Under the pieces are notes generated by a model, which ran no database searches, was not told the DNA's origin, and worked only from the letters and a program-made list of their open reading frames with translations. A DNA stretch of 41,704 bases from Bacteroidota bacterium (GTDB taxonomy: Bacteria > Bacteroidota > Bacteroidia > NS11-12g > UBA955), in assembly GCA_046314695.1 (NCBI GenBank), contig JBKDBI010000306.1:1-41704 (forward strand), written 5' to 3'. A program made the position numbers and the translations under genes. Positions within the stretch are counted from its first letter, which is position 1. Each line of letters starts with the position of its first letter. Positions 1,126 to 40,045 of this stretch are shown one piece after another.

Positions 1126-3675
1126 ATGAGCATTGTCACGGACGACGTGCAGCAACAACAAGCGGAACGCAACTTTCACTGGGAACGCGCGGCGGTGCAG
1201 GACGGCATCGACCGCTACTGGCAGGGCGTGAGTGACGCACAGAAGCGTGACCAACTCGCCATGTCACCCGTGTGGCGACCGATCATCGCTCTCATGCACG
1301 AGCAGGCGGCGGTGGGTTTCTCGGCTGCACGCAAGAGCGTGGAGTCTGGCCGCTGGCGCGAAGAACTGCAAGGCATCATCGGCCTTGTCAGTGACGCGAA
1401 ACTGGGTGCCATCACGGCCAACACGATGGTGTCGATGTGTGCCCGCGCAGAGGAACTGTTTATCGGTGAAGACGACGCAACCTCACGCCGCGCCGCACCC
1501 ATGCGATCAGTCACGCGAGAAGTGGGCAAGGTGATTGTGGCCGCAGCCGGACACGCACTCATGGGTGCTGACCTTGCCGACCAGCGCGAACTCGCCAGTG
1601 AACGCAAGCGTCTGGCGAAGGAAGGTGAGTACGAATACGACTGGTCGCAGGATGAAGATGTGGCGTTGCTCTATCGCCTCAGCGCAAGTGGCAAGGTGCC
1701 ATTGCACAGTCGCGTCATCACCGAACTCCGCAAGAGTGATTACGGGTCGCAGATGAACGCCACCGAGCGTTTCCTGCACACCGTTGGCGAGTGGGCAATC
1801 GGCGTGGCGTGGGGCGCGATGGTGCTGCCACAGGAACGCAAGGACGAAAGCGGCGAGGTGGTCACCGAGTACGTGCGTCCGTTCCTGCGTGTCTCCATCA
1901 AGAACGGCAAGCGTCGCGCCATCCCCGCCGTCACGTTTACGTCGGAAGTGGCGAAGATGGTGGACCGCCGCCATGTAAGCCGCGAGGCTGGGCACCCCCG
2001 GTTTCGTCCGCTGCTGACAGAGCCGAAGAAGTGGGCGTGTGACGAGCATGGCCGCATCTCGCAGCGTGGCGGATACCACAGCATCAACGCGCCGATGATT
2101 AGCGCGACGACCGCAGCCCAGCGCACGCTGTTGCGAGAAGCGTCGATGCCGTTGGTGGTCAAGGCGATGAACGCCATGAACAGCCAGACGCTCATGCTGT
2201 TTGATCCGATCCTGTCCATGCAACGCGAGGCGATGAGTCGCGGCATGGAAGTAGGCAAGCTCCCCCCGTTCTACCCGCCCGACAAGCCGCCGCGTCCGGC
2301 AGCCGCAGACGAAGACAAGGACATCAACCGCAAGTGGCGCAGCGCGGCCCGCAAGTGGTGGGAGAGTGTGTACGAGATTGTCGGTCGCCAGGTCACGCAC
2401 GCGGAGTGCTTGCGACTGGGTGAAGAAATCGCGTCGCAGAATGACGGCCTGTTCTGGCAGGACTACGTGCTGGACTTCCGTGGCCGTGCATCGGTGCGGT
2501 GTGCGTCACTCACGCACTACGGCTACGACGCGGTGCGTGCGTTGACAGTGAGTGCGGTAGACAAGCCGATGACCGAGCGTGGTATGCGGTGGCTGAAAAT
2601 CCACGCCGCAAACTGCTGGGGCAAAGACGGGCTGGACAAAAAGAGCTTCAACACGCGGGCCAAGTGGGCAGACGACAACGCGGCCAACATGGAGCGGGCC
2701 GTGCGGATGGGCCTAGATGACGAGTGGTGGCAGCAAGCCGACGACCCGTGGCAGTTCTGGCAGGCGTGCGTGGGCCTGTGCGAGCCGGACAAGTGGGGGC
2801 GGCGCATCTTCGTCGGGCGTGACGGCACGTTCAACGGGATGCAGCACTGGGCGGCAATCACTCGCGACCCAGTGACGGCGGCGATGGTCAACCTCTGCGA
2901 GAGTGACGACGCAACCGACCCGCGTGCGCCGTATGCGGAGGTGGCTGCTGCCGCACGACAACTGCTCCCGCCGCAACTTGCGAAACTGGTCACGACCAAG
3001 GTTGCAAAGCCGCAGGTCATGCTGAGCGTGTACGGCGTGACGGCCTACGGCACGACCAACAACATGCACGCATCGCTGATGAAGGAGCATGGGCTGTCTG
3101 ACGCGCTGGCAAGCAAAGTGCGCAAGGCCATCGTCATGGTGGTGCAGAAGGTCATGGAGGAGCGGATGGGTAACGCCGTCGCCATGATGGAGTATGTGTC
3201 GCGGTCGGCGAAGGCAGTGGCGGATACGGGTGTGCTGCCTGCCTGGTCCACGGTTCTGGGATTCCCCGTGGTGCAGCCGTACATGTCGGTCCACAAGAAC
3301 GTGAACGTGCTGGGCAAGCAGTTGGCACTGGTAGACCACGCCAGCCCCAAGCCGCGAGTTCGCAAGAACGGCAGTGCGGCCAGTCCCAACTTCATTCACA
3401 GCGTCGATGGTGCCCATTTTATGCTGACGGCGGCAGACCACGCCGCGGCGGACATTCCCATGATCGGTCAGTTCGACCGCTTCTGTTCGCTGCCCGCAGA
3501 CGTGGACGAGAGCGCGGCCATCACCACGGCGGCGTTCGTTGAGACGCACAAGGCCGACCCGATGGGCTTGTTTGTGGAAGCCTGCCGCCAGCATGTGCCC
3601 GACTTGCCCGACCCGCCCGCACGCGGAAACTGGGACATCGAGCGCGCCGCCAAAGCCACCTACGCCTTTAGTTAG
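1126..3675 (+). CDS. Single-subunit T7/mitochondrial-type DNA-dependent RNA polymerase
   Basis: 849 aa; DFRGR, WLKIHAANCWG, motif A DGTFNGMQH, motif B K-x7-YG (AKPQVMLSVYG), SPNFIHSVDGAH, motif C QFDRF, C-terminal YAFS like T7 FAFA. Confidence 0.96.
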   Translation: MSIVTDDVQQQQAERNFHWERAAVQDGIDRYWQGVSDAQKRDQLAMSPVWRPIIALMHEQAAVGFSAARKSVESGRWREELQGIIGLVSDAKLGAITANTMVSMCARAEELFIGEDDATSRRAAPMRSVTREVGKVIVAAAGHALMGADLADQRELASERKRLAKEGEYEYDWSQDEDVALLYRLSASGKVPLHSRVITELRKSDYGSQMNATERFLHTVGEWAIGVAWGAMVLPQERKDESGEVVTEYVRPFLRVSIKNGKRRAIPAVTFTSEVAKMVDRRHVSREAGHPRFRPLLTEPKKWACDEHGRISQRGGYHSINAPMISATTAAQRTLLREASMPLVVKAMNAMNSQTLMLFDPILSMQREAMSRGMEVGKLPPFYPPDKPPRPAAADEDKDINRKWRSAARKWWESVYEIVGRQVTHAECLRLGEEIASQNDGLFWQDYVLDFRGRASVRCASLTHYGYDAVRALTVSAVDKPMTERGMRWLKIHAANCWGKDGLDKKSFNTRAKWADDNAANMERAVRMGLDDEWWQQADDPWQFWQACVGLCEPDKWGRRIFVGRDGTFNGMQHWAAITRDPVTAAMVNLCESDDATDPRAPYAEVAAAARQLLPPQLAKLVTTKVAKPQVMLSVYGVTAYGTTNNMHASLMKEHGLSDALASKVRKAIVMVVQKVMEERMGNAVAMMEYVSRSAKAVADTGVLPAWSTVLGFPVVQPYMSVHKNVNVLGKQLALVDHASPKPRVRKNGSAASPNFIHSVDGAHFMLTAADHAAADIPMIGQFDRFCSLPADVDESAAITTAAFVETHKADPMGLFVEACRQHVPDLPDPPARGNWDIERAAKATYAFS

Positions 3676-26372: not shown

Positions 26373-28130
26373 ATGGGTCAACCACTGAGCCGCGAGTACC
26401 TCACTCGCATCGTGAACGACTGGGACTTCTACGTCGATGAATGCTTTCGACTGATGAAGTGGCCCAAGCAGGCACTCACAGCCTACGAGCGCGCGATGTT
26501 CCGCGACATGGCGTTCGGCCATCCGCGCCGCGTTATCTGCGCACCGCGCGGTATCGGCAAGACCTACGGCGTGACCATGCTTGCGACGTGGCGACTGCGC
26601 CGCGACCGCAACCGCCGCATCATCATCGTCAACTACAACGACAAGTACGCGGGCAAGACGCTGTTCCTTATCCGCGAGATGCTGGAGAGCCTGCCGTTCC
26701 TGCAAGACCTGGCTCCCAAGGGCCAAGACGTTGACAACCGCCTGTCCTTCAACGTCCACGGCGCGCTGCCCAATCGCCAGCCCAGCGTGAGCGTCGGCAG
26801 CATCAACGCCAGCTTGGAGTCGATGCGTGCCCACAGCATCTTCTTTGACGACGTGGAGACGAAGAAGAACGTGGTGACGGTCGAGGGCCGCGAGACGCTG
26901 AAAGCCCAGACCAACGAAGGCACCAACATCATCTACCCCGCCTCCACCGATGCTGTGGACGCGCCTGAAATCATCGTCACGCAGACCCCCAAGCACGACG
27001 AGTCCATTGTCCGCACCTTCAAGGATCGCGGGTTCAACGTCTTCTGCTACCCGCTGCTCGTGCCATCCGAAGGCGAGCCTGGCCCGTACATGCTGGCTCC
27101 CGCCGCCGAACGCCTCATGCGTGACCTCGCGCCTGGCACGCTGCTGGTTCCTCGCTTCTCGCCCGCCGAAGTCGCCGAACGCCGCGCGGCCAAGCACGAG
27201 TTCTGGCGTGAGCAGCAGCAGGCTGTGAGCCTTGGCGGACTCGAAGAACGCCCGCTTAGTCTCAGTGACCTCATCGTCTTTGACTTCCCCCCACCCCCCG
27301 GCAAGTTGCCGCTGGGTGTCTCGTGGGGCACCAGCAACAACAACGGCAGCACAAAGCTCAGCATCCCCTGCCTCGGCTTTGGCAACGACGCGCTCCACGG
27401 CCCCATCTTCGTAGACAAAGAGTTCGCCAGCCCCTTCGCTACCAAAGCCGCCATCGACCCCAGCGGCAAGGGCAAGGACAAGACGGGTATCGCCATCGGC
27501 AGCACGCTGGGCGGCATGGTCTTCGTGCATCTGGTGGACGGCATGCCGGGCGGTGTGGATGAACCGACCATCGAGCGACTGGTGTTGCTCTTGAAGCAAT
27601 ACCGCGTGCAGGAAGTGGTGTTTGAAAAGAACTTCGACACCACGGGCATCTACCAGCAGACGCTGGAGACGCTGATTCACCGCCATCACGCCCAGCCTGG
27701 CGACCCGCTCTTTCCCGAGGGATGGACCTGCCGCGTCGAAGGCATCCACAGCACGCGCAACAAGGAAGACCGCATCATCACCAGCCTGCAATCCATCATG
27801 GGTTCGCACCGGCTGGTCATGCACCCCCAGACGCTGCGCCCTGACCTGCGTGAAGAAGACTCGTTCTACAACGAGTTGCAGTACCAGATTGCCAACATCA
27901 AGCAGACCGAGAAGCGCGACGGCAAGGTGGTGCGCAGCGTGCTGCGTGAAGACGGCAAGATCGACGCGCTGGCGATGCTGGTGACGGCCTTGCAGCAGTT
28001 CCGCCGTCTGGAGCCTGCCATCCAGCGTCAGACCGCCATCGAGCGTGACATGGACCGCGAGCGTCCCATCACCCCCGGCCCCCGCGCCGCCTTTGCGGGC
28101 CGCTCAGACTACCGCCGCGTCCGCCACTAA
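26373..28130 (+). CDS. terL: Terminase large subunit, T7 gp19-like
   Basis: Walker A APRGIGKT, Walker B IFFDDVE, nuclease AIDPSGKGKDKT, EKNF, KEDRII, DGKIDAL. Confidence 0.95.
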   Translation: MGQPLSREYLTRIVNDWDFYVDECFRLMKWPKQALTAYERAMFRDMAFGHPRRVICAPRGIGKTYGVTMLATWRLRRDRNRRIIIVNYNDKYAGKTLFLIREMLESLPFLQDLAPKGQDVDNRLSFNVHGALPNRQPSVSVGSINASLESMRAHSIFFDDVETKKNVVTVEGRETLKAQTNEGTNIIYPASTDAVDAPEIIVTQTPKHDESIVRTFKDRGFNVFCYPLLVPSEGEPGPYMLAPAAERLMRDLAPGTLLVPRFSPAEVAERRAAKHEFWREQQQAVSLGGLEERPLSLSDLIVFDFPPPPGKLPLGVSWGTSNNNGSTKLSIPCLGFGNDALHGPIFVDKEFASPFATKAAIDPSGKGKDKTGIAIGSTLGGMVFVHLVDGMPGGVDEPTIERLVLLLKQYRVQEVVFEKNFDTTGIYQQTLETLIHRHHAQPGDPLFPEGWTCRVEGIHSTRNKEDRIITSLQSIMGSHRLVMHPQTLRPDLREEDSFYNELQYQIANIKQTEKRDGKVVRSVLREDGKIDALAMLVTALQQFRRLEPAIQRQTAIERDMDRERPITPGPRAAFAGRSDYRRVRH

Positions 28131-30260: not shown

Positions 30261-30479
30261 TCAGCAAATGTCCTGCTTGAACAACTCTTTGCCCGTCTCA
30301 CTGTCAACGAGAGTGACCGACACGGGCGACAACGCCTGATACACGATGCACGCATAGGTGCGCCAGTCAACGACCCCACAGCACACGAGCATCTTGCACA
30401 ACGCTTCGTCCTGCGCCTTGGCAACCGTGCGTGCAATGTCCTGCTTCAACAAGTCAATCCGTTTCCGTAGTTCATCCAT
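30261..30479 (-). CDS. Hypothetical protein
   Basis: GGAGGT RBS; 72 aa; overlaps the end of the upstream gene. Confidence 0.6.
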   Translation of the reverse strand: MDELRKRIDLLKQDIARTVAKAQDEALCKMLVCCGVVDWRTYACIVYQALSPVSVTLVDSETGKELFKQDIC

Positions 30480-30750
30480 CTGTCCACCTCCGTATCAACT
30501 CCAACCGCTCTGCCACCTTCTCTGCACTCAACACCACCACACGCCCCTTCGCATACCGCGCCTTCACAATCTTCCGCAGCGCACTCTCACACCCCTCACG
30601 CCCGCCCCTACCGCGTGCGTACACACGCTTCTGGTCATACACCCGCCAGAACCCCGTCTTGTACACCACGCCCGTCAGACGGCCCCAGAAGCCAACAGCG
30701 TCGATGTACGGGTCAGTCGCGGGGTGCCAGGGGAAGTCAGTTGTTGTCAT
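30472..30750 (-). CDS. Hypothetical basic protein
   Basis: 92 aa; ATGA overlap with the SLOG gene. Confidence 0.6.
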   Translation of the reverse strand: MTTTDFPWHPATDPYIDAVGFWGRLTGVVYKTGFWRVYDQKRVYARGRGGREGCESALRKIVKARYAKGRVVVLSAEKVAERLELIRRWTDG

Positions 30751-31115
30751 TCAACTCGCACCACTGTCACGCCAGCCTTCTCCGCGCGCCTCACCATGTC
30801 AGCCGTCCCGGTCCCGCCGGGGAACGCCACTACCACGTCTGGTTTCCCCAAGTCCAGCATCCGCTGGTTGCGTAGCGGACCTGCCTTACGTCCAAGCTCA
30901 CGCCAATCCTCTTGCGTCACAGGGAAGATGTACTGACCCACGCTGTTCAACTCAGCCCACCGCTTAGCAGCCGTGTCCGCTCCCGTCGCACCACCGTGGA
31001 TGATCTGTGCGATGGGACGTTGCATGTGAATCTCACGCAGGGTGTCCCACACGTAGCCGGTGTTGTTGTAGTCCCGTCCGCCGCACACCAGCACCTTGTA
31101 GCCTTCACTGTCCAT
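30747..31115 (-). CDS. DUF2493 / YspA-related SLOG family protein
   Basis: KVLVCGGRDY, IIHGGATGAD, AGPLRNQRML, VVAFPGGTGTADMV; start re-called at 31115 with AAGGGG RBS. Confidence 0.85.
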   Translation of the reverse strand: MDSEGYKVLVCGGRDYNNTGYVWDTLREIHMQRPIAQIIHGGATGADTAAKRWAELNSVGQYIFPVTQEDWRELGRKAGPLRNQRMLDLGKPDVVVAFPGGTGTADMVRRAEKAGVTVVRVE

Positions 31116-31213
31116 TTGCATACCCCTTGAAAAGTTTTGCCGAGTTGTGAGGGGGTCGATTGACGAGTCTCGGCTCGCCACTTTCCCCCCGTACCCCCCC
31201 CTCGCGCTGTCGT

Positions 31214-31352
31214 CCGGTGTGCGTCGTTGGCCTGTGCAGCCAGCGTTGTCACTCGCAAGTGTCGTGTTCTCAGGTAGTTGCGTCATCGGTGTGCGTTTCG
31301 GTGTGCGTTTCATCGCCTGGATGCCGCTCGTTCGCGTTCGCCTGGATGCCGC
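31214..31352 (+). repeat. Short direct repeats in a low-complexity region
   Basis: cggtgtgcgtttc x2 in tandem plus cggtgtgcgt at 31215; tcgcctggatgccgc x2. Confidence 0.7.
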
Positions 31353-31512: not shown

Positions 31513-31753
31513 CCATCCTCAGGCACATGCACGCACACACCAGAGAGCCTAGCCATGTGTGTTGTGTGAGCTGCTCGCGTTGGTGTGCGTGTGCGTGTGT
31601 CTGGGGTTACCAGTTGCGTCCGTGGTCTTTCATGTTCGTTACCACTAACTAATAAACAAGAGGATACGAGGGCAAAACTCTGAATTCCACCCTTGTCTAC
31701 TCACACGAAAGGGTGAATCTGTAAGAATATGATGCAGACTGTTTACAGTGTGC

Positions 31754-31782
31754 TTGCACTACTCCGATGGTTGTGGTATACT
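31754..31782 (+). promoter_or_regulatory. Host sigma70-type early promoter
   Basis: TTGCAC - 17 bp - TATACT with extended -10 TG; AT-rich upstream; predicted +1 near 31788. Confidence 0.8.
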
Positions 31783-31787
31783 ACTGC

Positions 31788-31837
31788 ACCGCTAGCGATG
31801 TGCTAGCGACTCGCGCAAACGAGTAGGAGAATGACCA
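31788..31837 (+). repeat. Structured intergenic module A (leader half only)
   Basis: cgctagc-GATGT-gctagcg, actcg-CGCAAA-cgagt, AGGAGAATG. Confidence 0.85.
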
Positions 31838-32047
31838 ATGTCCACCGCTAATTACGTTGTCTGTGTTCGCCGTGTTGAGGGTGCCGAGTGGGTTGCCGAC
31901 TCTGGGCACGCCACCAACAAGGATGCGTATGCACGTGCTGACAGCCTTAGCCCCACGGCTTACGACGTGTGCGTGCTGACCGCTGACCTCGCCCGCCTTA
32001 TGCGTGTTGAGGTTCCGCCTGTGGGCTGGTCCTACGTCACCTGCTAA
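31838..32047 (+). CDS. Early hypothetical protein
   Basis: 69 aa; AGGAG RBS. Confidence 0.75.
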   Translation: MSTANYVVCVRRVEGAEWVADSGHATNKDAYARADSLSPTAYDVCVLTADLARLMRVEVPPVGWSYVTC

Positions 32048-32137
32048 CCCTCTCGCCCACACCCGTGCTACCGCGCCGGTGTCGGTTTCACCTACCAACG
32101 TGGTAGGCTCGCGCAAACGAGTACAGGAGAATGGATC
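32048..32137 (+). repeat. Structured intergenic module B
   Basis: acacc-C-gtgc-TACC-gcgc-C-ggtgt, TTTCA, cctacc-AACGT-ggtagg, ctcg-CGCAAA-cgag, AGGAGAATG. Confidence 0.88.
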
Positions 32138-32473
32138 ATGGCTAAAGCGAAGGTTTCCAGCAAGATCACGTATCAGCAAGCGGCTGCGGCTATGTCGCTG
32201 GAGCGCGATCGCGTTATCCGTGACGCACAATCGTCTATGCGTGCTTCACAGTGCTTCACGGATGCAAAGGTCTACGGATTCCCGTTCGGAGTCGGCAAAG
32301 ACTACCCGGCAACCAGAATCCTCGGCTGGTGCCGCCCCGACGAAGACATTCCCGCTAGCTGTGAACTTATCGCCCGCATTCCGGTGTCCAATCTTTCCGA
32401 GTTGCAAGCTGTGCGAATGCTTGCCGACAAGATGCAGTCTTTCCCCGCATTCAACTGTGAGAAGATCGCCTAA
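32138..32473 (+). CDS. Early hypothetical protein
   Basis: 111 aa; AGGAG RBS. Confidence 0.75.
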   Translation: MAKAKVSSKITYQQAAAAMSLERDRVIRDAQSSMRASQCFTDAKVYGFPFGVGKDYPATRILGWCRPDEDIPASCELIARIPVSNLSELQAVRMLADKMQSFPAFNCEKIA

Positions 32474-32553: not shown

Positions 32554-33342
32554 ATGGAACTTCGTGATTTTGTCGGTATGCGTGTGCGATGGTCAGATAT
32601 GGCGAACTACCGGACTGGCGTTGTTTTCAACGTCCGCAAGCCGGATCGCACCGTCTACACCATCGGCGCGACAATGCAATCTGTCGCCATCGTGCTCGAT
32701 GTGGTCTGGGATGATGGTCTCATCACGCGGGAGAGTCCGCTAGACCGCTGGGAAGTCCTGCCGGGCTTTGCTGACGCGGACGAAATCGCCAAGATGCTGC
32801 ACGATGCAGACCAGAAACAAGCGCAGAAGGAAGCGGAAGCCCGTGCAGAGAAGGCAGAAAACGCCACTATCCGCGCGTCGCTCCCCACGCTTCACCCACA
32901 CTTGCTGACAGTGCAAGCCCGCAAAGACTGGGCACCCGGTCGAATCGCTGCCGAGAACATCCGGCGCGAGTTGAAGCGACTGTACCCGAAGGTGAAGTTT
33001 TCGATTCGCTACAAGTCCTTCTCGGGTGGCAACTCTATTGACGTTTCATGGGTCGATGGTCCCACATCCGCCAGCGTAAACGCCATCATCGGCAAGCACG
33101 AATACGGGTCCTTCGATGGGATGACGGACTGCTACAACTACGACAGCGAATCGGATCGAACATGGGGCGATGTGTTCGGCAGTGCGAAGTACGTGCACGC
33201 TTCACGCACCCATACCATCGACGCAGTACGCGCGGCGTGGAAGTCCAAGGGCTTCAACGCTGACGAAGTGCCAGCTACAGACGCTTGGCAGTCTGACTTG
33301 TGGCAGCACATGTTCCTCGCGTGGTCTGAGACTGCTTTCTGA
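32554..33342 (+). CDS. LPD29 domain-containing protein
   Basis: Start re-called at ATG 32554; AAENIRRELKRLYPKVKFSIR...SIDVSWVDGPT...GSFDGMTD...FGSAKYV. Confidence 0.8.
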   Translation: MELRDFVGMRVRWSDMANYRTGVVFNVRKPDRTVYTIGATMQSVAIVLDVVWDDGLITRESPLDRWEVLPGFADADEIAKMLHDADQKQAQKEAEARAEKAENATIRASLPTLHPHLLTVQARKDWAPGRIAAENIRRELKRLYPKVKFSIRYKSFSGGNSIDVSWVDGPTSASVNAIIGKHEYGSFDGMTDCYNYDSESDRTWGDVFGSAKYVHASRTHTIDAVRAAWKSKGFNADEVPATDAWQSDLWQHMFLAWSETAF

Positions 33343-33431
33343 CCTACCACCCCTCGCGCGTTCCCCAACGGGACCGCGCGGGATTCACTGGGCGATGTGC
33401 CCACACATACTACCGCACACAGGAGGTTTAC
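33343..33431 (+). repeat. Structured intergenic module D
   Basis: accacccctcgcgcg-T-tccc-CAAC-ggga-C-cgcgcggg, ATTCA, tgggc-GATGT-gccca, AGGAGG; third hairpin absent. Confidence 0.82.
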
Positions 33432-34317: not shown

Positions 34318-34505
34318 AGTGCAACCTTTGCGGATACGAGATTTGGCGCGGCGGCACCTGCCAGCGCACGTGCAAGTATGACAAGAAAACCGGCCACTTC
34401 AACCGTGGCAAGACGTGCCACATCGGGTGCGCCGAGAAGCATTACCAAGACCACCACGACACCAAGAATCCTCGCTCGCTCGCGTCAATGCAGCTCACCA
34501 AATAA
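34314..34505 (+). CDS. Small Cys/His-rich protein
   Basis: GTGA overlap; CNLC...CQRTC...CHIGC..H. Confidence 0.6.
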   Translation: MKCNLCGYEIWRGGTCQRTCKYDKKTGHFNRGKTCHIGCAEKHYQDHHDTKNPRSLASMQLTK

Positions 34506-34591
34506 CCACCCCTCGCGCCCCACTTGACCGTGCGGCGCGGGTTTCATCGGCCCCGGATTGCAGGGGTGTGCGCAAACACAAGGAGAATGGA
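34506..34591 (+). repeat. Structured intergenic module F
   Basis: ccacccctcgcgcc-C-cac-TTGACC-gtg-C-ggcgcggg, TTTCA, degenerate second hairpin, tgtg-CGCAAA-caca, AGGAGAATG. Confidence 0.85.
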
Positions 34592-34837
34592 ATGGAAACG
34601 AATCACAAGCCCGGAACCGTGCGCCGTCTGTATTGCAACTGCTGCGGAAGTGCGAATGGTCGCTTCGCCCAGCACTGGAACCAGGACACCGGATACGGCA
34701 TCTGCCGCCCGTGCGTGCTGAAGTGGTACCGTGGCAAGGGCCACACCGAGGCCGACATCGAGCAACTGTTTGGCAAAGAGGGTGTGAACTGGGCCAACGC
34801 CGAGCAATGGGCTGAGATCGAAGCTGCTAACGCCTGA
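34592..34837 (+). CDS. Small zinc-finger-like protein
   Basis: Start re-called at ATG 34592; CNCCG...QHWNQDTGYGICRPC. Confidence 0.7.
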   Translation: METNHKPGTVRRLYCNCCGSANGRFAQHWNQDTGYGICRPCVLKWYRGKGHTEADIEQLFGKEGVNWANAEQWAEIEAANA

Positions 34838-34894
34838 CATACCACCCCTCGCCCCTCGCCTACCCGCGCGGGGCGGGATTGAAAGGAGAACAGG
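34838..34894 (+). repeat. Structured intergenic module G (first hairpin only)
   Basis: accacccctcgcccc-T-cgc-CTACCC-gcg-C-ggggcggg, ATTGA, AAGGAGAA. Confidence 0.8.
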
Positions 34895-35125: not shown

Positions 35126-35372
35126 CTCCCTACCCCTCGGCCCCGCCATGCAACTCGCTCGCATCACTGCCAACTACCACCCCACCAACAAGGGTGAACT
35201 GGCGAACCTTCACAAGATCGAACGACGCGGGCGTGACATGCTGCTGTCAACCCTCGTGGGTGCCATGAGCAAGTACGGCGGCGCGGTCTACATCGTGACC
35301 GCCAAGGGCACACACGTCCGCATCAGCGGTGTTGAGGACACGCTCGGCGCAGAGAAAGCGGGGCAGCCATGA
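35118..35372 (+). CDS. Hypothetical protein upstream of the integrase
   Basis: 84 aa; GGGAGG RBS; overlaps both neighbours. Confidence 0.65.
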   Translation: MPNSLPLGPAMQLARITANYHPTNKGELANLHKIERRGRDMLLSTLVGAMSKYGGAVYIVTAKGTHVRISGVEDTLGAEKAGQP

Positions 35373-36457
35373 TCCTCGTCACACCCCGTCGCAACGGCGC
35401 GAAGGGCTGGCGTGCCTGCTGGAAGCAAGCCCAGCCGGACGGCACTGTCCGCGAAGTCTACAGGCACATCGGCGACGTTACCAAGGCCAAGGCCCAACGG
35501 GTCTGCGCGGACATTCAACGCGAGCTTGACGAATCACCCCTCGCTGCGCCGTCGTCACTGTCGGCATGGTCGCGGCGGTTCTTTGAGTGCTGCGGGTCGC
35601 TGTCTGAGGACACCGAAGGGCTGTACACGCTGACCTTCACGCGACTGCTGGAACACTTTGGCGATGTGGAGCTAGGCGAAGTCACGGACGCGGACGCGAG
35701 GAGCTTCCTGACGTATCTGGAGGCACTACGCAAGCCGGACGGTACAGCTCTGTCCTCGTCGTCGATCAACCGGCACCTACGCGATGCGCGGCGGATATGG
35801 GCTATCGCTGTCGAGGCGAAGCTCTGCCGAGAGAACCCGTTCGCGTCGGCTGCGGCGCGTGAGGGGCGGGCGAAGCACAAGGTAGGGGTAGCGTTCACCC
35901 GCTACGTGCCCCTCTCCGAACTTGCCATGCTGCTGAAAGCGTGCCCCAGCGAGGACTGGCGGCTGGTGTTCCAAGTCGCACGGCTGGCAGGGCTGCGGCG
36001 CAACGAGATCGAGCGGCTGGAGTGGGGGAACATCGACCTGCAAGCCCGCACTATCACGGTCGAGGGCGATTTCGAGGACGGCGCATCGCGCGAGGGCACC
36101 AAGAAACGCCGCCGCGTGGTGCCCATCGTGCCCGAGTTGTACGACGTGCTGGCGAACCACCCCTCGCGGACGGGGCTGCTGGTGCAGGTCAACCAGAGCA
36201 ACTTCGAGCGTGACGCGCGCGGCATCGTGGAGCGGAGCGGAGTGGAGGACTACGGCAAGCCCCTGCACAGCTTGCGGGCGAGCTTTGCGAATGACATGAT
36301 GGACAGACACCCGATCCAGGACGTTGCGGAGTGGTTGGGCCACTCGGTAGAGGTCGCGATGCGGCACTACAGGCAACGGGAGCGGGCGAGTAGAATCGAC
36401 GCAGCCGTGAGCGTTCCGCTGTCAAAATCACATCGCACAACCCTAGCGATTGCATAG
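35369..36457 (+). CDS. int: Tyrosine recombinase / phage integrase
   Basis: GLRRNEI (R), TKK (K), HSLR (HxxR), LGHS (H), RHY (Y); SAM-like core-binding region ending in ENPF. Confidence 0.93.
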   Translation: MILVTPRRNGAKGWRACWKQAQPDGTVREVYRHIGDVTKAKAQRVCADIQRELDESPLAAPSSLSAWSRRFFECCGSLSEDTEGLYTLTFTRLLEHFGDVELGEVTDADARSFLTYLEALRKPDGTALSSSSINRHLRDARRIWAIAVEAKLCRENPFASAAAREGRAKHKVGVAFTRYVPLSELAMLLKACPSEDWRLVFQVARLAGLRRNEIERLEWGNIDLQARTITVEGDFEDGASREGTKKRRRVVPIVPELYDVLANHPSRTGLLVQVNQSNFERDARGIVERSGVEDYGKPLHSLRASFANDMMDRHPIQDVAEWLGHSVEVAMRHYRQRERASRIDAAVSVPLSKSHRTTLAIA

Positions 36458-37203: not shown

Positions 37204-37610
37204 AATGCTCCCTTGCACTCATCGCCTGCGCGTTCCTCTCGCTGGGCGCTGGCTACTACGACCGCTACGCACGCATCCTCCCCGCCATCGAACACGTCGA
37301 GTCGTCCGGCCGCGCGGATGCGGTCGGTGACGGCGGGAAGGCTGTCGGGATTCTCCAGATTCACCCGGTGATGGTCGCGGATGTGAACCGCATCGTCGGT
37401 GAAGACCGCTGGACGTTGGAAGATCGGTTGTGCCCGGACGAAAGCCGCGCGATGTTCCGCGTGTACAGCAACCACTACTCGAAGGACGCGAGCGACGAGG
37501 TTGTCGCTAGGCGATGGAACTCCGGGCCACGCGGTGACCGCAAGAAGGCGACGGAGAAGTACTGGAAGAAGGTTCAGCGCGCGATGCGCGAGCAGGAGGC
37601 TGCCAAGTGA
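37200..37610 (+). CDS. Lysozyme-superfamily protein (lytic transglycosylase-like) with signal peptide
   Basis: AIEHVESSG (catalytic Glu), AVGILQI, ARRWNSGP; hydrophobic N-terminus MKCSLALIACAFLSLGAG. Confidence 0.8.
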   Translation: MKCSLALIACAFLSLGAGYYDRYARILPAIEHVESSGRADAVGDGGKAVGILQIHPVMVADVNRIVGEDRWTLEDRLCPDESRAMFRVYSNHYSKDASDEVVARRWNSGPRGDRKKATEKYWKKVQRAMREQEAAK

Positions 37611-38116
37611 ACACATGGAAGCAACATCCACGCTTTGCCAGCATTGAGGTTTCAGACGACGGGCTGATCCGCCGCACAAACCGCCAGCCGTACAGCCTGA
37701 CCAAAGACAAGGACGGCTATGTGCAGGTGGGTGCAAGAGTGAACGGTCGTCGCGTCACCATGAAGGTGCATCGCGCGGTTGCGGAGACGTTCATCGGTCC
37801 AGTAGTTGGCATGGACGTGAATCACCTCAACGGAGTCAAAGACGACAACCGTGTTTGCAACTTGCAGATTTGCACAAAGTCGGAGAACCACTTTCATGCC
37901 CGCCGCGTGCTGGGGCAATTGGTTGGCGAACGCAATGGTTGTGCCAAGCTGACCAACCAACAGGCCCAAGAGATTTACAACGCAATGCGTCGCGGCGAGA
38001 AGGCAAAGGACATAGCCGCACGCCACGGTGTTCAACCCAAAGAGTGCCGTCGCATTCTTCGCGGCGAGCGTTGGGCGCATGTGGTCAAGCGTGATGAACA
38101 GGAGAACAAGCAATGA
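37607..38116 (+). CDS. NUMOD4-HNH homing endonuclease-like protein
   Basis: WK..EVSDDG, VHRAVAETF, VNHLNGVKDDNRVCNL..SEN..H; C-terminal HTH-like segment. Confidence 0.9.
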   Translation: MNTWKQHPRFASIEVSDDGLIRRTNRQPYSLTKDKDGYVQVGARVNGRRVTMKVHRAVAETFIGPVVGMDVNHLNGVKDDNRVCNLQICTKSENHFHARRVLGQLVGERNGCAKLTNQQAQEIYNAMRRGEKAKDIAARHGVQPKECRRILRGERWAHVVKRDEQENKQ

Positions 38117-38631
38117 GCGATTTACCCAAGGGCGACGCGGCCCTCATCGCCGCAATCAACTCCGGCGCGCCCGTGCCGACGAACGAGCGGCAGGCGGGGG
38201 AACTCACGCAGCGTTGGGGGGTGTGGTACAGCACTCCAACCGAAGGCGCATGGTGCGAACCCACGTTTGGCAATGAATCGGACGCGATTCGATTTGAGCA
38301 GCGCAGCAACGCGAAGGCTCAGCGTTACGACCCGTCGTGTCGCTACGAAGTCCGCCCGTACACCGCCCCCTCGCCCACCCCACCCGCCGCGCCGGGTGAG
38401 TGGAAGGTGAAAGAGGCAACGGTGAACGTCGGCTGGTACGTAGACCACCCGCAGTACGCATCGCTGCACTGCATCACCAAGTCATACGCGGACTTCATCG
38501 CCACCCGCCTCAACCGCGCGGACGCGATGGAGCGGGCGTTGCGCAAGTGCATGTCGCTGATTGGACCGCTCGAAGCGACCAACAAACGGCTCGAAGCGTT
38601 CCAAGCTGCCGAAGCCGCCCTCCGCAAGTAA
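38113..38631 (+). CDS. Hypothetical protein (WGVW...YEVRPY family)
   Basis: 172 aa; AGGAG RBS. Confidence 0.7.
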   Translation: MSDLPKGDAALIAAINSGAPVPTNERQAGELTQRWGVWYSTPTEGAWCEPTFGNESDAIRFEQRSNAKAQRYDPSCRYEVRPYTAPSPTPPAAPGEWKVKEATVNVGWYVDHPQYASLHCITKSYADFIATRLNRADAMERALRKCMSLIGPLEATNKRLEAFQAAEAALRK

Positions 38632-38672
38632 CCCCTCCCTCCCCGCGTTGCCGGTGGGCGCGCGGGTGGGTT

Positions 38673-38765
38673 GACTCGGAAGCGAAATCAGGCCTCGCAC
38701 TGCAACGGAAGCCAGCGTTCGCTGAGTGGTTGCGGAGGATGCGGGTTCAAATCCCGCCCGAGTCA
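38673..38765 (+). ncRNA. tRNA-like RNA with a non-canonical extended anticodon arm
   Basis: Acceptor GACTCGG/CCGAGTC plus A; D arm GCGA/TCGC; T arm GCGGG-TTCAAAT-CCCGC; 5-nt variable loop; no 7-nt anticodon loop. Confidence 0.75.
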
Positions 38766-38816
38766 TTTCCTCTCTCTCCTTGCTGGCGGCATCCGCATGT
38801 CCCCGCCAGCACCTCG

Positions 38817-38850
38817 CTCCGCCGCCGACGAAAGGACGCGGCGGGGTTTT
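38817..38850 (+). terminator. Terminator-like hairpin downstream of the tRNA-like RNA
   Basis: ctccgccgc..GAAA..gcggcgggg then TTTT. Confidence 0.55.
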
Positions 38851-38862
38851 CAGGAGGATCAC

Positions 38863-39267
38863 ATGATCGAAGCACACGAAGTATCGGAAACGGTTGGAGA
38901 AGCGTTGGCCGCATGGGATGCAGGCAAGCCTGTTGTCACCATTGAAATGGGCGGCATGGGCGACGGGTACGAACACGCAATTCAATCGCTCGCGTTTGAG
39001 ATCATCCGCACTTGGCAGCACACGGTGCCGCAAGGTGAAGAAATCACCGACGAGCGATGGCGGCTGATGGGCATTGATCGCGACGGCATCGTTGCCCGCA
39101 TGGACAAAGAACACGGGTTTAGCGGCGCGCAGGTTGGTGCCGCCAGCAACTTGGCTGCGTGCGTCGTTCGCCGTGGCTATCGGAACGCGGTAATGGATTC
39201 GCGGCTCGATGCAGACCGCCGCATGTGGTGGACAAAGAGCGGTCGGCACGAGGTGCAACGTGCCTAA
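38863..39267 (+). CDS. Hypothetical protein
   Basis: AGGAGG RBS; start re-called at 38863 (MIEAHEVSETV...). Confidence 0.75.
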   Translation: MIEAHEVSETVGEALAAWDAGKPVVTIEMGGMGDGYEHAIQSLAFEIIRTWQHTVPQGEEITDERWRLMGIDRDGIVARMDKEHGFSGAQVGAASNLAACVVRRGYRNAVMDSRLDADRRMWWTKSGRHEVQRA

Positions 39268-39460
39268 CGAATGGCCCGACCGCACGACGTGGGCGGAGTC
39301 GATGGGATGCCTCGCGGCGATGGTGGACGCCTGGCACGACTCCCGCGCCGTGGGCGTGGACGTGAAGCTCGTGCGGTGCCCGGACTGCAAGGGCACGGAC
39401 GACGAGTGTGAGCGGTGCGAGGGGAGTGGTGAGGTTGTAGACGAAAGGAGCAAGCCATGA
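39260..39460 (+). CDS. Small protein with DnaJ-type CxxCxG zinc motifs
   Basis: GTG at 39260; CPDCKG...CERCEGSG. Confidence 0.6.
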   Translation: MPNEWPDRTTWAESMGCLAAMVDAWHDSRAVGVDVKLVRCPDCKGTDDECERCEGSGEVVDERSKP

Positions 39461-39672
39461 GCGACGAAGCGAAGAAGTGGGGAATCTGGATGAAGGACAA
39501 TACCGGAGGTGTCTTTCGTGAGTGTTGGACACTTCGCGGCGAGAGCCACGAGGTGTACGACAACAAGGCGGAGGCAGAGGAGTGGGTTCGCAAGTACAAC
39601 ACGTTCTTTGATAGCACTTCCTACGAGGTCCGCGAGTACACGCCCGCCGCGAGAGGGGGCAGCAGTGAGTGA
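39457..39672 (+). CDS. Hypothetical protein (WGIW...YEVREY family)
   Basis: 71 aa; AAGGAG RBS. Confidence 0.7.
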   Translation: MSDEAKKWGIWMKDNTGGVFRECWTLRGESHEVYDNKAEAEEWVRKYNTFFDSTSYEVREYTPAARGGSSE

Positions 39673-40045
39673 GACAACCACAACCTACGGCGTGTGGTAC
39701 ACCGACCGCGACGGCCAATCTGGTTGGTTTAGCAACTGCGGCCACACCGAGTTTCCGCTTGAACAAGCCACACGGATAGCCAAGCGCGCTCATGCTGATT
39801 CGGTCGGCACTGAGTACGCAGACACGACGTACGCCGTCGTCCCGTACGAAGGCGTTGTACGCAAGTCCGAACTCAACACCCTCGCCGCCGAGAACGCGAG
39901 GTTGCGGGAGTCCATGTTGGAACTGCTGCGGCTTGCGATGGACCCGAAGTGCACGGGCTATGTCAAGCGAGACAGCAAGGGCGACATTGGCAGCATTCGC
40001 AGAGCGGGCGACATCATCGAAGACGCGAAAGCGTTGTTGAAGTAA
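39665..40045 (+). CDS. Hypothetical protein (YGVW...YAVVPY family) with coiled coil
   Basis: GTG at 39665 after GAGGGGG. Confidence 0.65.
   Translation: MSETTTTYGVWYTDRDGQSGWFSNCGHTEFPLEQATRIAKRAHADSVGTEYADTTYAVVPYEGVVRKSELNTLAAENARLRESMLELLRLAMDPKCTGYVKRDSKGDIGSIRRAGDIIEDAKALLK

Follow-up and report, generated by a model that had tools for sequence, protein, structure and literature searches.

Phage tRNA genes are commonly taken either to supplement codon usage or to replace tRNAs that host defences have destroyed. Neither reading is available for a gene that has the shape of a tRNA but lacks an anticodon loop, and the locus described here raises the question of what such an RNA is and what it does. 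A tRNA body that does not decode calls for another explanation: it might punctuate mRNA, act as a decoy or carry a small hairpin. The window, meaning the whole stretch of DNA that was analysed, is the complete 41,704-bp contig C306 of a 510-contig metagenome bin. Its gene content is that of a T7-like, integrase-bearing phage with nearly all genes on the plus strand, as judged from Pfam and PHROGs. A first-pass annotation had suggested a maintained tRNA mimic at this locus, and we analysed its anatomy, its surroundings and its possible relatives. Coordinates of all features are collected in Table 1.

Table 1. Features of the window and of two further contigs of the same bin.
Feature	Position	Strand	Description
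tRNA-shaped RNA gene (the element)	38673..38765	+	93 nt; discriminator A at 38765; CCA not encoded; Rfam RF00005, ARAGORN, minimum-energy cloverleaf
Acceptor stem, 5' strand	38673..38679	+	7/7 Watson-Crick pairs with 38758-38764
D arm	38682..38698	+	4-bp stem 38682-38685/38695-38698; 9-nt loop containing GG
Extended arm replacing the anticodon arm	38700..38735	+	36 nt; 7 bp enclosing 22 nt; fold prediction
Variable loop	38736..38740	+	5 nt; sequence and Rfam
T arm	38741..38757	+	5-bp stem; loop TTCAAAT
Acceptor stem, 3' strand	38758..38764	+	Sequence, Rfam, fold
Upstream hairpin	38642..38666	+	G+C-rich; just past the stop codon of the 172-aa ORF; context fold
First downstream hairpin	38781..38811	+	Context fold
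Second downstream hairpin	38816..38850	+	10 bp (38816-38847), then TTTT; terminator-like; just 5' of the next ORF's ribosome-binding site
Upstream ORF	38113..38631	+	172 aa; no family match
Downstream ORF	38863..39267	+	134 aa; no family match; ATG at 38863 with Shine-Dalgarno
Single-subunit RNA polymerase	1126-3675		T7-like phage gene
Large terminase	26373-28130		T7-like phage gene
Tyrosine integrase	35369-36457		Pfam/PHROGs
Stop-codon and hairpin modules	32036-32082, 33339-33385, 34498-34544, 34834-34880; also about 38629-38670		Resemblance of the 38642-38666 hairpin judged by eye
tRNA-like gene of contig C235	24701-24789 (L288 9702-9790)	-	89 nt; 33-nt arm; 43.5 bits
tRNA match of contig C67	2563-2673	-	111 nt; 36.1 bits; missed by ARAGORN

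The Rfam check proposed in the first-pass annotation returned a tRNA above the cut-off: RF00005 is the only family matched across the 41.7-kb window, on the plus strand at the position of the element, with 42.6 bits and an E value of 7.1e-6 (the gathering score of RF00005 is 29 bits). At the locus no other Rfam family reached E 0.1. Each anatomical detail reported earlier is present in the sequence, namely a perfect 7-bp acceptor stem, a 4-bp D stem with GG in its loop, a T arm with the loop TTCAAAT and a variable loop of 5 nt. The arm of 7 bp enclosing 22 nt in the place of the anticodon arm was likewise found, as were the A at position 8 (38680) and the missing CCA, the trailer opening with TTT; most tRNA genes of the bin are likewise without encoded CCA. 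Together with the RF00005 score, the element thus has the 7-bp acceptor stem, a D arm with G18-G19, a 5-bp T stem with T-loop and the discriminator A73, and all 23 stem pairs of its four helices are intact. With tRNA position numbers assigned by hand, the core departs from the tRNA consensus at two places: an A stands at position 8, and at position 21, the last nucleotide of the D-loop, a C replaces the usual A. The Levitt pair 15-48 consists of A and U.

Folding the 93 nt gives the cloverleaf as the structure of lowest energy (-39.9 kcal/mol, z -2.41, with 4/200 shuffles equally stable), and this shape is also retained when 238 nt of context are folded. The extended arm is predicted to consist of 7 bp followed by a 6x4 internal loop and a 4-bp hairpin with a 4-nt loop, at -13.9 kcal/mol. 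An alternative fold with tandem G.A pairs, 3 bp and an 8-nt loop reaches -11.0 kcal/mol. Folded alone the arm shows no unusual stability (z -1.65), since 65 of 1000 shuffles are as stable. The element lacks the normal anticodon arm, in which a stem of 5 bp closes a loop of 7 nt that has U33 and a purine at position 37. The Rfam alignment puts 26 nt where the model has 7, and the would-be positions 32-33 pair with the opposite nucleotides inside the stem, so that the former loop is a continuous helix with nothing inserted in a loop. These data support a tRNA-shaped gene with intact acceptor stem and elbow that is unable to decode.

Could the element still yield a working tRNA, if the insert were excised after transcription? 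ARAGORN, whose use had been suggested as a further check, does call the element, as a 95-nt "tRNA-Phe(gaa)" with the anticodon at position 37. The call comes only through its intron model and needs G33 as well as a 17-nt "intron". We enumerated all excisions of one contiguous 19-nt piece that leave a 17-nt arm (n=18). A 5-bp stem is kept in 8 of the 18, and U33 is obtained in none, so the element is not an intron-bearing decoder; splicing to a normal anticodon loop, the outcome named beforehand as speaking against a tRNA mimic, did not emerge from the enumeration. Self-splicing introns of group I or II are far larger than an insert of 17-26 nt, and no Rfam intron family matched. Pfam, applied to 26 ORFs, and PHROGs, applied to 24, revealed neither an RNA ligase nor a splicing endonuclease, and an ordinary tRNA-Phe(GAA) is already present in the bin. 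We therefore reject the spliced decoder as contradicted by the sequence itself and give it next to no weight. The "tRNA-Phe" label is wrong here, and tRNA counts from viral metagenomes may include such non-decoders.

Several other RNA classes were considered and rejected. The tmRNA and Y RNA/YrlA options raised in the first-pass annotation did not survive: ARAGORN found no tmRNA in the window and the pair 3:70 is C-G, not G-U, whereas for a Y RNA the topology differs, tRNA is the only Rfam match at the locus and the TROVE domain of Ro60 (PF05731) had no match in the bin including the phage contig, although control genomes did match. By the established identity rules of the synthetases that act independently of the anticodon, none of their identity elements could be read in the element, given C-G at 3:70, the lack of a long variable arm and the lack of G-1. 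An antisense role was rejected on duplex energies. The best duplex of the 23-nt insert with any 60-nt window of the plus strand had -32.0 kcal/mol, like that of 30 shuffled inserts (-31.8 +/- 1.7 kcal/mol, best -35.4). Kink-turn and sarcin-ricin readings of the internal loop were compared by hand with their consensus, and the strand order fits neither. The frame of the 134-aa ORF is open back to a TTG at 38671 and so spans the element; translation across it was rejected as well, since relatives of the protein align only from residue 8 of the ATG-started form and a Shine-Dalgarno sequence precedes that ATG.

The element is intergenic and lies on the same strand as all neighbouring genes, 41 nt past the stop codon of the 172-aa ORF and 97 nt ahead of the start codon of the 134-aa ORF. 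The flanking hairpins seen in the first reading are real in the 238-nt context fold, with one upstream and two downstream. The second downstream hairpin is missing from a consensus terminator scan, its loop being longer than the scan permits. No sigma-70-like promoter was found in 38300-39000. Contigs from three metatranscriptome runs of low depth (2-4) cover parts of the flanking ORFs (37741-38417, 39012-39244 and 39670-39851); none covers any part of 38447-38985, and contigs at such depth cannot show absence. Several early-region ORFs are followed by a repeated module in which the stop codon is succeeded by C-rich sequence (CCCCTCGCG-like), a G+C-rich hairpin and a few T residues. Such modules are probably terminators or mRNA-end hairpins.

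Beyond RNA polymerase and large terminase the phage encodes portal, scaffold, tail tube and internal virion protein. The early and lysogeny region after the terminase holds a DNA methylase, the tyrosine integrase, an HNH endonuclease, a PD-(D/E)XK exonuclease and an Erf-type annealing protein. The G+C content of the contig is 61.7% compared to 52.9% for the bin, the bulk of which lies at 50-56%, and host assignment from binning is therefore unsafe. Further G+C outliers in the bin are the contigs C464 (61.5%) and C235, C508 and C343 (about 66%). The phage RNA polymerase was not found in 400 sampled genomes of the bin's phylum nor in 190 of its order. Phage contigs of the bin were probably grouped by coverage and not by host. 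Of 24 listed DNA runs, 17 contain the stretch 37600-39900 in nearly identical form, with 0.96-1.00 of the sampled words present. The 20 rows of holders of this stretch come from 12 studies of 2017-2025, mostly labelled freshwater, with three labelled fungus metagenome, which points either to a phage of very wide distribution or to a source that recurs. Near-identical copies of this kind indicate that the phage is common but offer no divergence for an analysis of conservation.

More distant relatives of the element were sought in several collections. Among 50,697 phage records, blastn with 1.5 kb around the element gave no match; used by itself, the element matched various tRNAs over short T-arm stretches only, in the best 25 of 85 records, T5 not being one of them. 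Nothing was found at the DNA level in the family of the bin, of which 124 other genomes were searched. The exact pattern of the 3' half had 0 matches in IMG/VR and likewise 0 in 185,579 species genomes, one for each species; a loose 3'-end pattern had 38 matches in the latter, of which 0 lie within a tRNA. A gapped pattern of D-loop and T-loop retrieved 5 unrelated stretches from IMG/VR and at least 119 from JGI metagenomes, and the frame of the element was present in none of the 119 examined. Two patterns of arm motifs retrieved at least 119 and at least 109 stretches from IMG/VR, with no relative among the 80 examined for each or in a 12-mer check of all loci. The matches examined were coding sequence or ordinary tRNAs carrying ACGGAAG in the D-loop. 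In these pattern searches near-identical copies from the same species may fall outside the scope. A homologue search for covariation in the extended arm had been proposed earlier; no homologue was found in any collection searched.

The neighbouring genes led to relatives of the phage itself. The 172-aa protein has no relative in IMG/VR, the 134-aa protein has relatives of 40-43% identity on two IMG/VR contigs, neither record containing a tRNA anywhere, and the RNA polymerase has one IMG/VR relative of 40% identity, contig G527. This contig also encodes a counterpart of the upstream beta-helix protein with 71% and of the integrase with 73% identity. The three nearest phage relatives found are all without the element. 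The tRNA content of G527 is limited to a 57-nt sub-threshold match at 39728-39784 on the minus strand, which corresponds to the 5' part of a tRNA-Gly(CCC) and extends through the anticodon loop. The fragment lies about 440 nt downstream of the integrase gene and runs into a terminator-type hairpin. It is likely to be an attachment site that provides the 5' half of a tRNA and not the usual 3' half. The same motif of stop codon, C-rich run and hairpin that recurs in the window follows this fragment.

Strain variation at the locus was compared in one diverged DNA run, X16. A second strain gives rise to a bubble in the assembly there (contig depth 20.8 vs 38.9): the two versions agree over the 30 nt ending at 38666 and again over the 30 nt starting at 38741, and the difference covers exactly 38667-38740 and with it the element's 5' three quarters. 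In this strain the T arm and the 3' acceptor strand are unchanged and the rest of the element is different or missing, which makes the element either dispensable or replaceable there. The 172-aa ORF varies in this run too: a second joint skips 68 nt inside its 3' end (38541-38610), and 11 differences lie in a bubble of 123 nt (38153-38275), which puts the divergence of the co-occurring strain in the ORF at about 9%. Of the "maintained tRNA mimic" proposed earlier, the tRNA shape without decoding ability stands; maintenance is unproven, with no homologue in any collection, a core that deviates at A8 and C21 and a different sequence in the second strain of X16.

An Rfam scan of the whole bin yielded 39 tRNA matches. 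Apart from 36 ordinary ones with 46.7-73.5 bits, the three lowest are the element, which ranks second lowest, and the tRNA-like genes on contigs C235 (43.5 bits) and C67. The C235 gene also has an enlarged arm and begins 5 nt after a normal tRNA-Met(CAT). Its contig, with 66% G+C, is phage-like (AAA_24 ATPase, PD-(D/E)XK nuclease, many orphan ORFs) and unrelated to the window. In both genes the 5' strand of the arm contains ACGGAAG and the 3' strand contains CUGA; together they can form two G.A pairs, an A-U and a G-C pair. This module is part of the minimum-energy fold in the C235 gene, and in the element it belongs to the alternative fold, 2.9 kcal/mol above the minimum. A shared 7-mer as long was obtained in 124 of 5000 shuffled pairs of the two arms, and ACGGAAG is common in phage tRNA D-loops; the module therefore is a weak lead and not a finding. 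The C67 gene, on a 2.9-kb contig, has a loop of ordinary appearance, CTTTAAA, and between this loop and the 3' strand of the stem an A+T-rich insert of about 45 nt; a T-arm fragment of another tRNA lies just upstream of it. In two unrelated IMG/VR contigs ARAGORN called a 123-nt "tRNA-Asn" (L164 484-606) and a 110-nt "tRNA-Leu" (L165 289-398), both with large internal inserts.

Natural RNAs of the same design are on record for phage T5. Its record NC_005859.1 annotates RNA1 at 30501-30644 (144 nt) and RNA2 at 32959-33083 (125 nt) as "tRNA-like stable RNA with unknown functions", the stability being that of the record annotation. Minimum-energy folds of both RNAs show acceptor, D and T arms and a much enlarged arm in the place of the anticodon arm. 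Like the element they are phage-encoded, keep acceptor, D and T arms and carry an enlarged helical domain without the normal 7-nt loop. They differ in that they are 125-144 nt long, have an extra arm and lie inside a large tRNA cluster of a virulent 122-kb phage, whereas the element has 93 nt and stands alone in the genome, about 42 kb in size, of a temperate T7-like phage. By blastn (best 25 of 85 records) no similarity in sequence between them was seen, so that the likeness is one of design and not of descent. The element is thus of the same kind as RNA1 and RNA2, a simpler further case of a kind already on record and not a fresh class.

Comparison with other RNAs places the element more closely. 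With the canonical tRNA of RF00005 it shares the cloverleaf, the elbow of G18-G19 and T-loop and A73, and it differs by the missing 7-nt loop and U33, by A8 and C21 and by the 36-nt arm. The same architecture, with acceptor, T and D arms kept, is found in the man-made tRNA scaffold of Ponchon and Dardel, in which a hairpin insert replaces the anticodon stem-loop; according to the account in PMC3753655 the chimera is recognised by E. coli factors, the RNA accumulates and the scaffold serves for the production of stable RNAs. It shows how a cell handles such an RNA, not what purpose a natural element has. YrlA and other bacterial Y RNAs contain a tRNA-like module of D, T and acceptor parts and occur in phages too, and one of them is described as being cut by RNase P and given CCA (PMC4201824). 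The element, unlike YrlA, ends within the acceptor stem, and its bin holds no TROVE gene. Host RNase P also frees the C4 RNA of P1/P7, the CI RNA of P4 and the M3 RNA of phi80 from longer transcripts; as presented in PMC5499578 these are hairpin-like antisense immunity RNAs with no T-loop equivalent. The element differs from them by its full cloverleaf, and no antisense target stands out in the window.

The explanation that we put forward tentatively, and to which we assign slightly less than an even chance, is that the element encodes a tRNA-derived, anticodon-less RNA that is released by tRNA-processing enzymes, and that its release divides the early transcript as well. The acceptor stem, the T arm and the D-loop elbow are the features by which RNase P, the 3'-end tRNA nucleases and the CCA-adding enzyme identify their substrates, and a U at -1 is favourable for RNase P cleavage. 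The element would be transcribed within an early polycistronic transcript, no promoter of its own having been detected. RNase P would then cut at G+1, with U at -1, 3' processing would follow after A73 and CCA would be added, and a stable tRNA-shaped RNA of about 96 nt with a rigid 36-nt arm could accumulate. This RNA would not pair with codons and is unlikely to be charged by most synthetases. The same event would sever the 172-aa ORF from the 134-aa ORF in the early mRNA, and the flanking hairpins may cap or protect the new ends. Such a role in "tRNA punctuation" would not need an anticodon. Among the roles suggested in the first-pass annotation, that of an RNase P/Z processing signal appears to fit the anatomy best. 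The benefit to the phage may lie in the cut, in the RNA or in both. We count in favour of a processed RNA the tRNA model as sole Rfam match, the cloverleaf as the fold of lowest energy, the continuous helix at 32-33, the fully paired stems and the 18 excisions without U33, then the intergenic position on the strand of the neighbours with hairpins on both sides, as well as the tRNA scaffold, the C235 gene and the T5 RNAs; the explanation is weakened by the lack of a homologue, the relatives without the element, the second strain of X16, A8 and C21, the second-lowest score in the bin, an arm that is not significantly stable and, in contrast to the T5 RNAs, a place outside any tRNA cluster.

The main rival to a processed RNA is the reading as a relic, in which an insertion or duplication would have remodelled the anticodon arm of a former phage tRNA gene that is now without function but has not yet decayed further. 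A8 and C21 are at odds with the tRNA core, the score falls below the range of all 36 ordinary tRNA matches of the bin, the nearest relatives do without the element, the co-occurring strain of X16 differs over the 5' three quarters and the arm is no more stable than many of its shuffles. These points speak for a relic. Random decay is, on the other hand, not expected to leave 23 stem pairs intact and former loop positions paired. Small phage genomes have scant room for dead DNA, and at 42 kb this one is no exception; moreover the same design recurs in T5 and in C235. We consider the relic rather unlikely, while taking it seriously. A smaller chance, which we would call improbable, goes to a decoy or sponge, a CCA-bearing RNA that would bind a host factor reading the upper half or the 3' end of tRNAs, such as a tRNA-end-modifying toxin or a tRNA-sensing defence, and would thereby shield host tRNAs or blunt an alarm. 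Acceptor stem, T arm and elbow being intact while decoding is lost is consistent with such a role, and phage tRNAs have been proposed in PMC10264068 to counter tRNA-targeting host defences. Against it, Pfam and PHROGs recognised no defence or counter-defence gene beside the element. PrrC, RloC and colicin-type nucleases read the anticodon loop, and nucleases of this type should not be decoyed by a loop-less RNA; from what is established about these enzymes, the role of an anticodon-nuclease decoy that had been suggested earlier fits poorly.

A connection with integration, by which the tRNA-derived sequence would be or descend from the attachment site of the tyrosine integrase, appears less probable still than a decoy. 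The phage does encode such an integrase, a tRNA-Gly(CCC) 5' part follows the related integrase gene of G527, and in X16 it is the T arm and the 3' acceptor strand that stay constant while the rest differs. Phage attachment sites carry a fragment of a tRNA, whereas the element is a complete cloverleaf with both acceptor strands. Its 3' end occurs in no tRNA of the 185,579 species genomes, with no exact match and all 38 loose matches outside tRNAs, and within the bin the only match is one of 17 nt in the T arm, to a tRNA-Met. Four ORFs and 2.2 kb also separate the element from the integrase gene, and A8 and C21 are unlike a copy of a working host tRNA. A broader idea starts from the arm shared with C235: phages of unrelated lineages might display a protein-binding hairpin on a tRNA body that is processed and stabilised by the host, the common module would be a shared ligand site, and the RNAs would form a widespread undescribed regulatory class. 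We regard this as a speculation with a poor chance of being correct. In the candidate ligand module GAAG of the 5' strand would face CUGA of the 3' strand and could form two sheared G.A pairs followed by A-U and G-C; AC-G precedes the module in both arms.

The element shows that the design known from T5 is found in a small temperate T7-like phage too, there as one gene with simple surroundings, and it offers a cleaner system in which to study the role of such RNAs. Elsewhere in the window a 90-nt near-perfect hairpin is found at 31517-31606, which an irrelevant microRNA model matches on both strands. It sits in a divergent region between minus-strand genes (30261-31313, 31781-32230) and the plus-strand early genes and may be an operator or origin-type palindrome.
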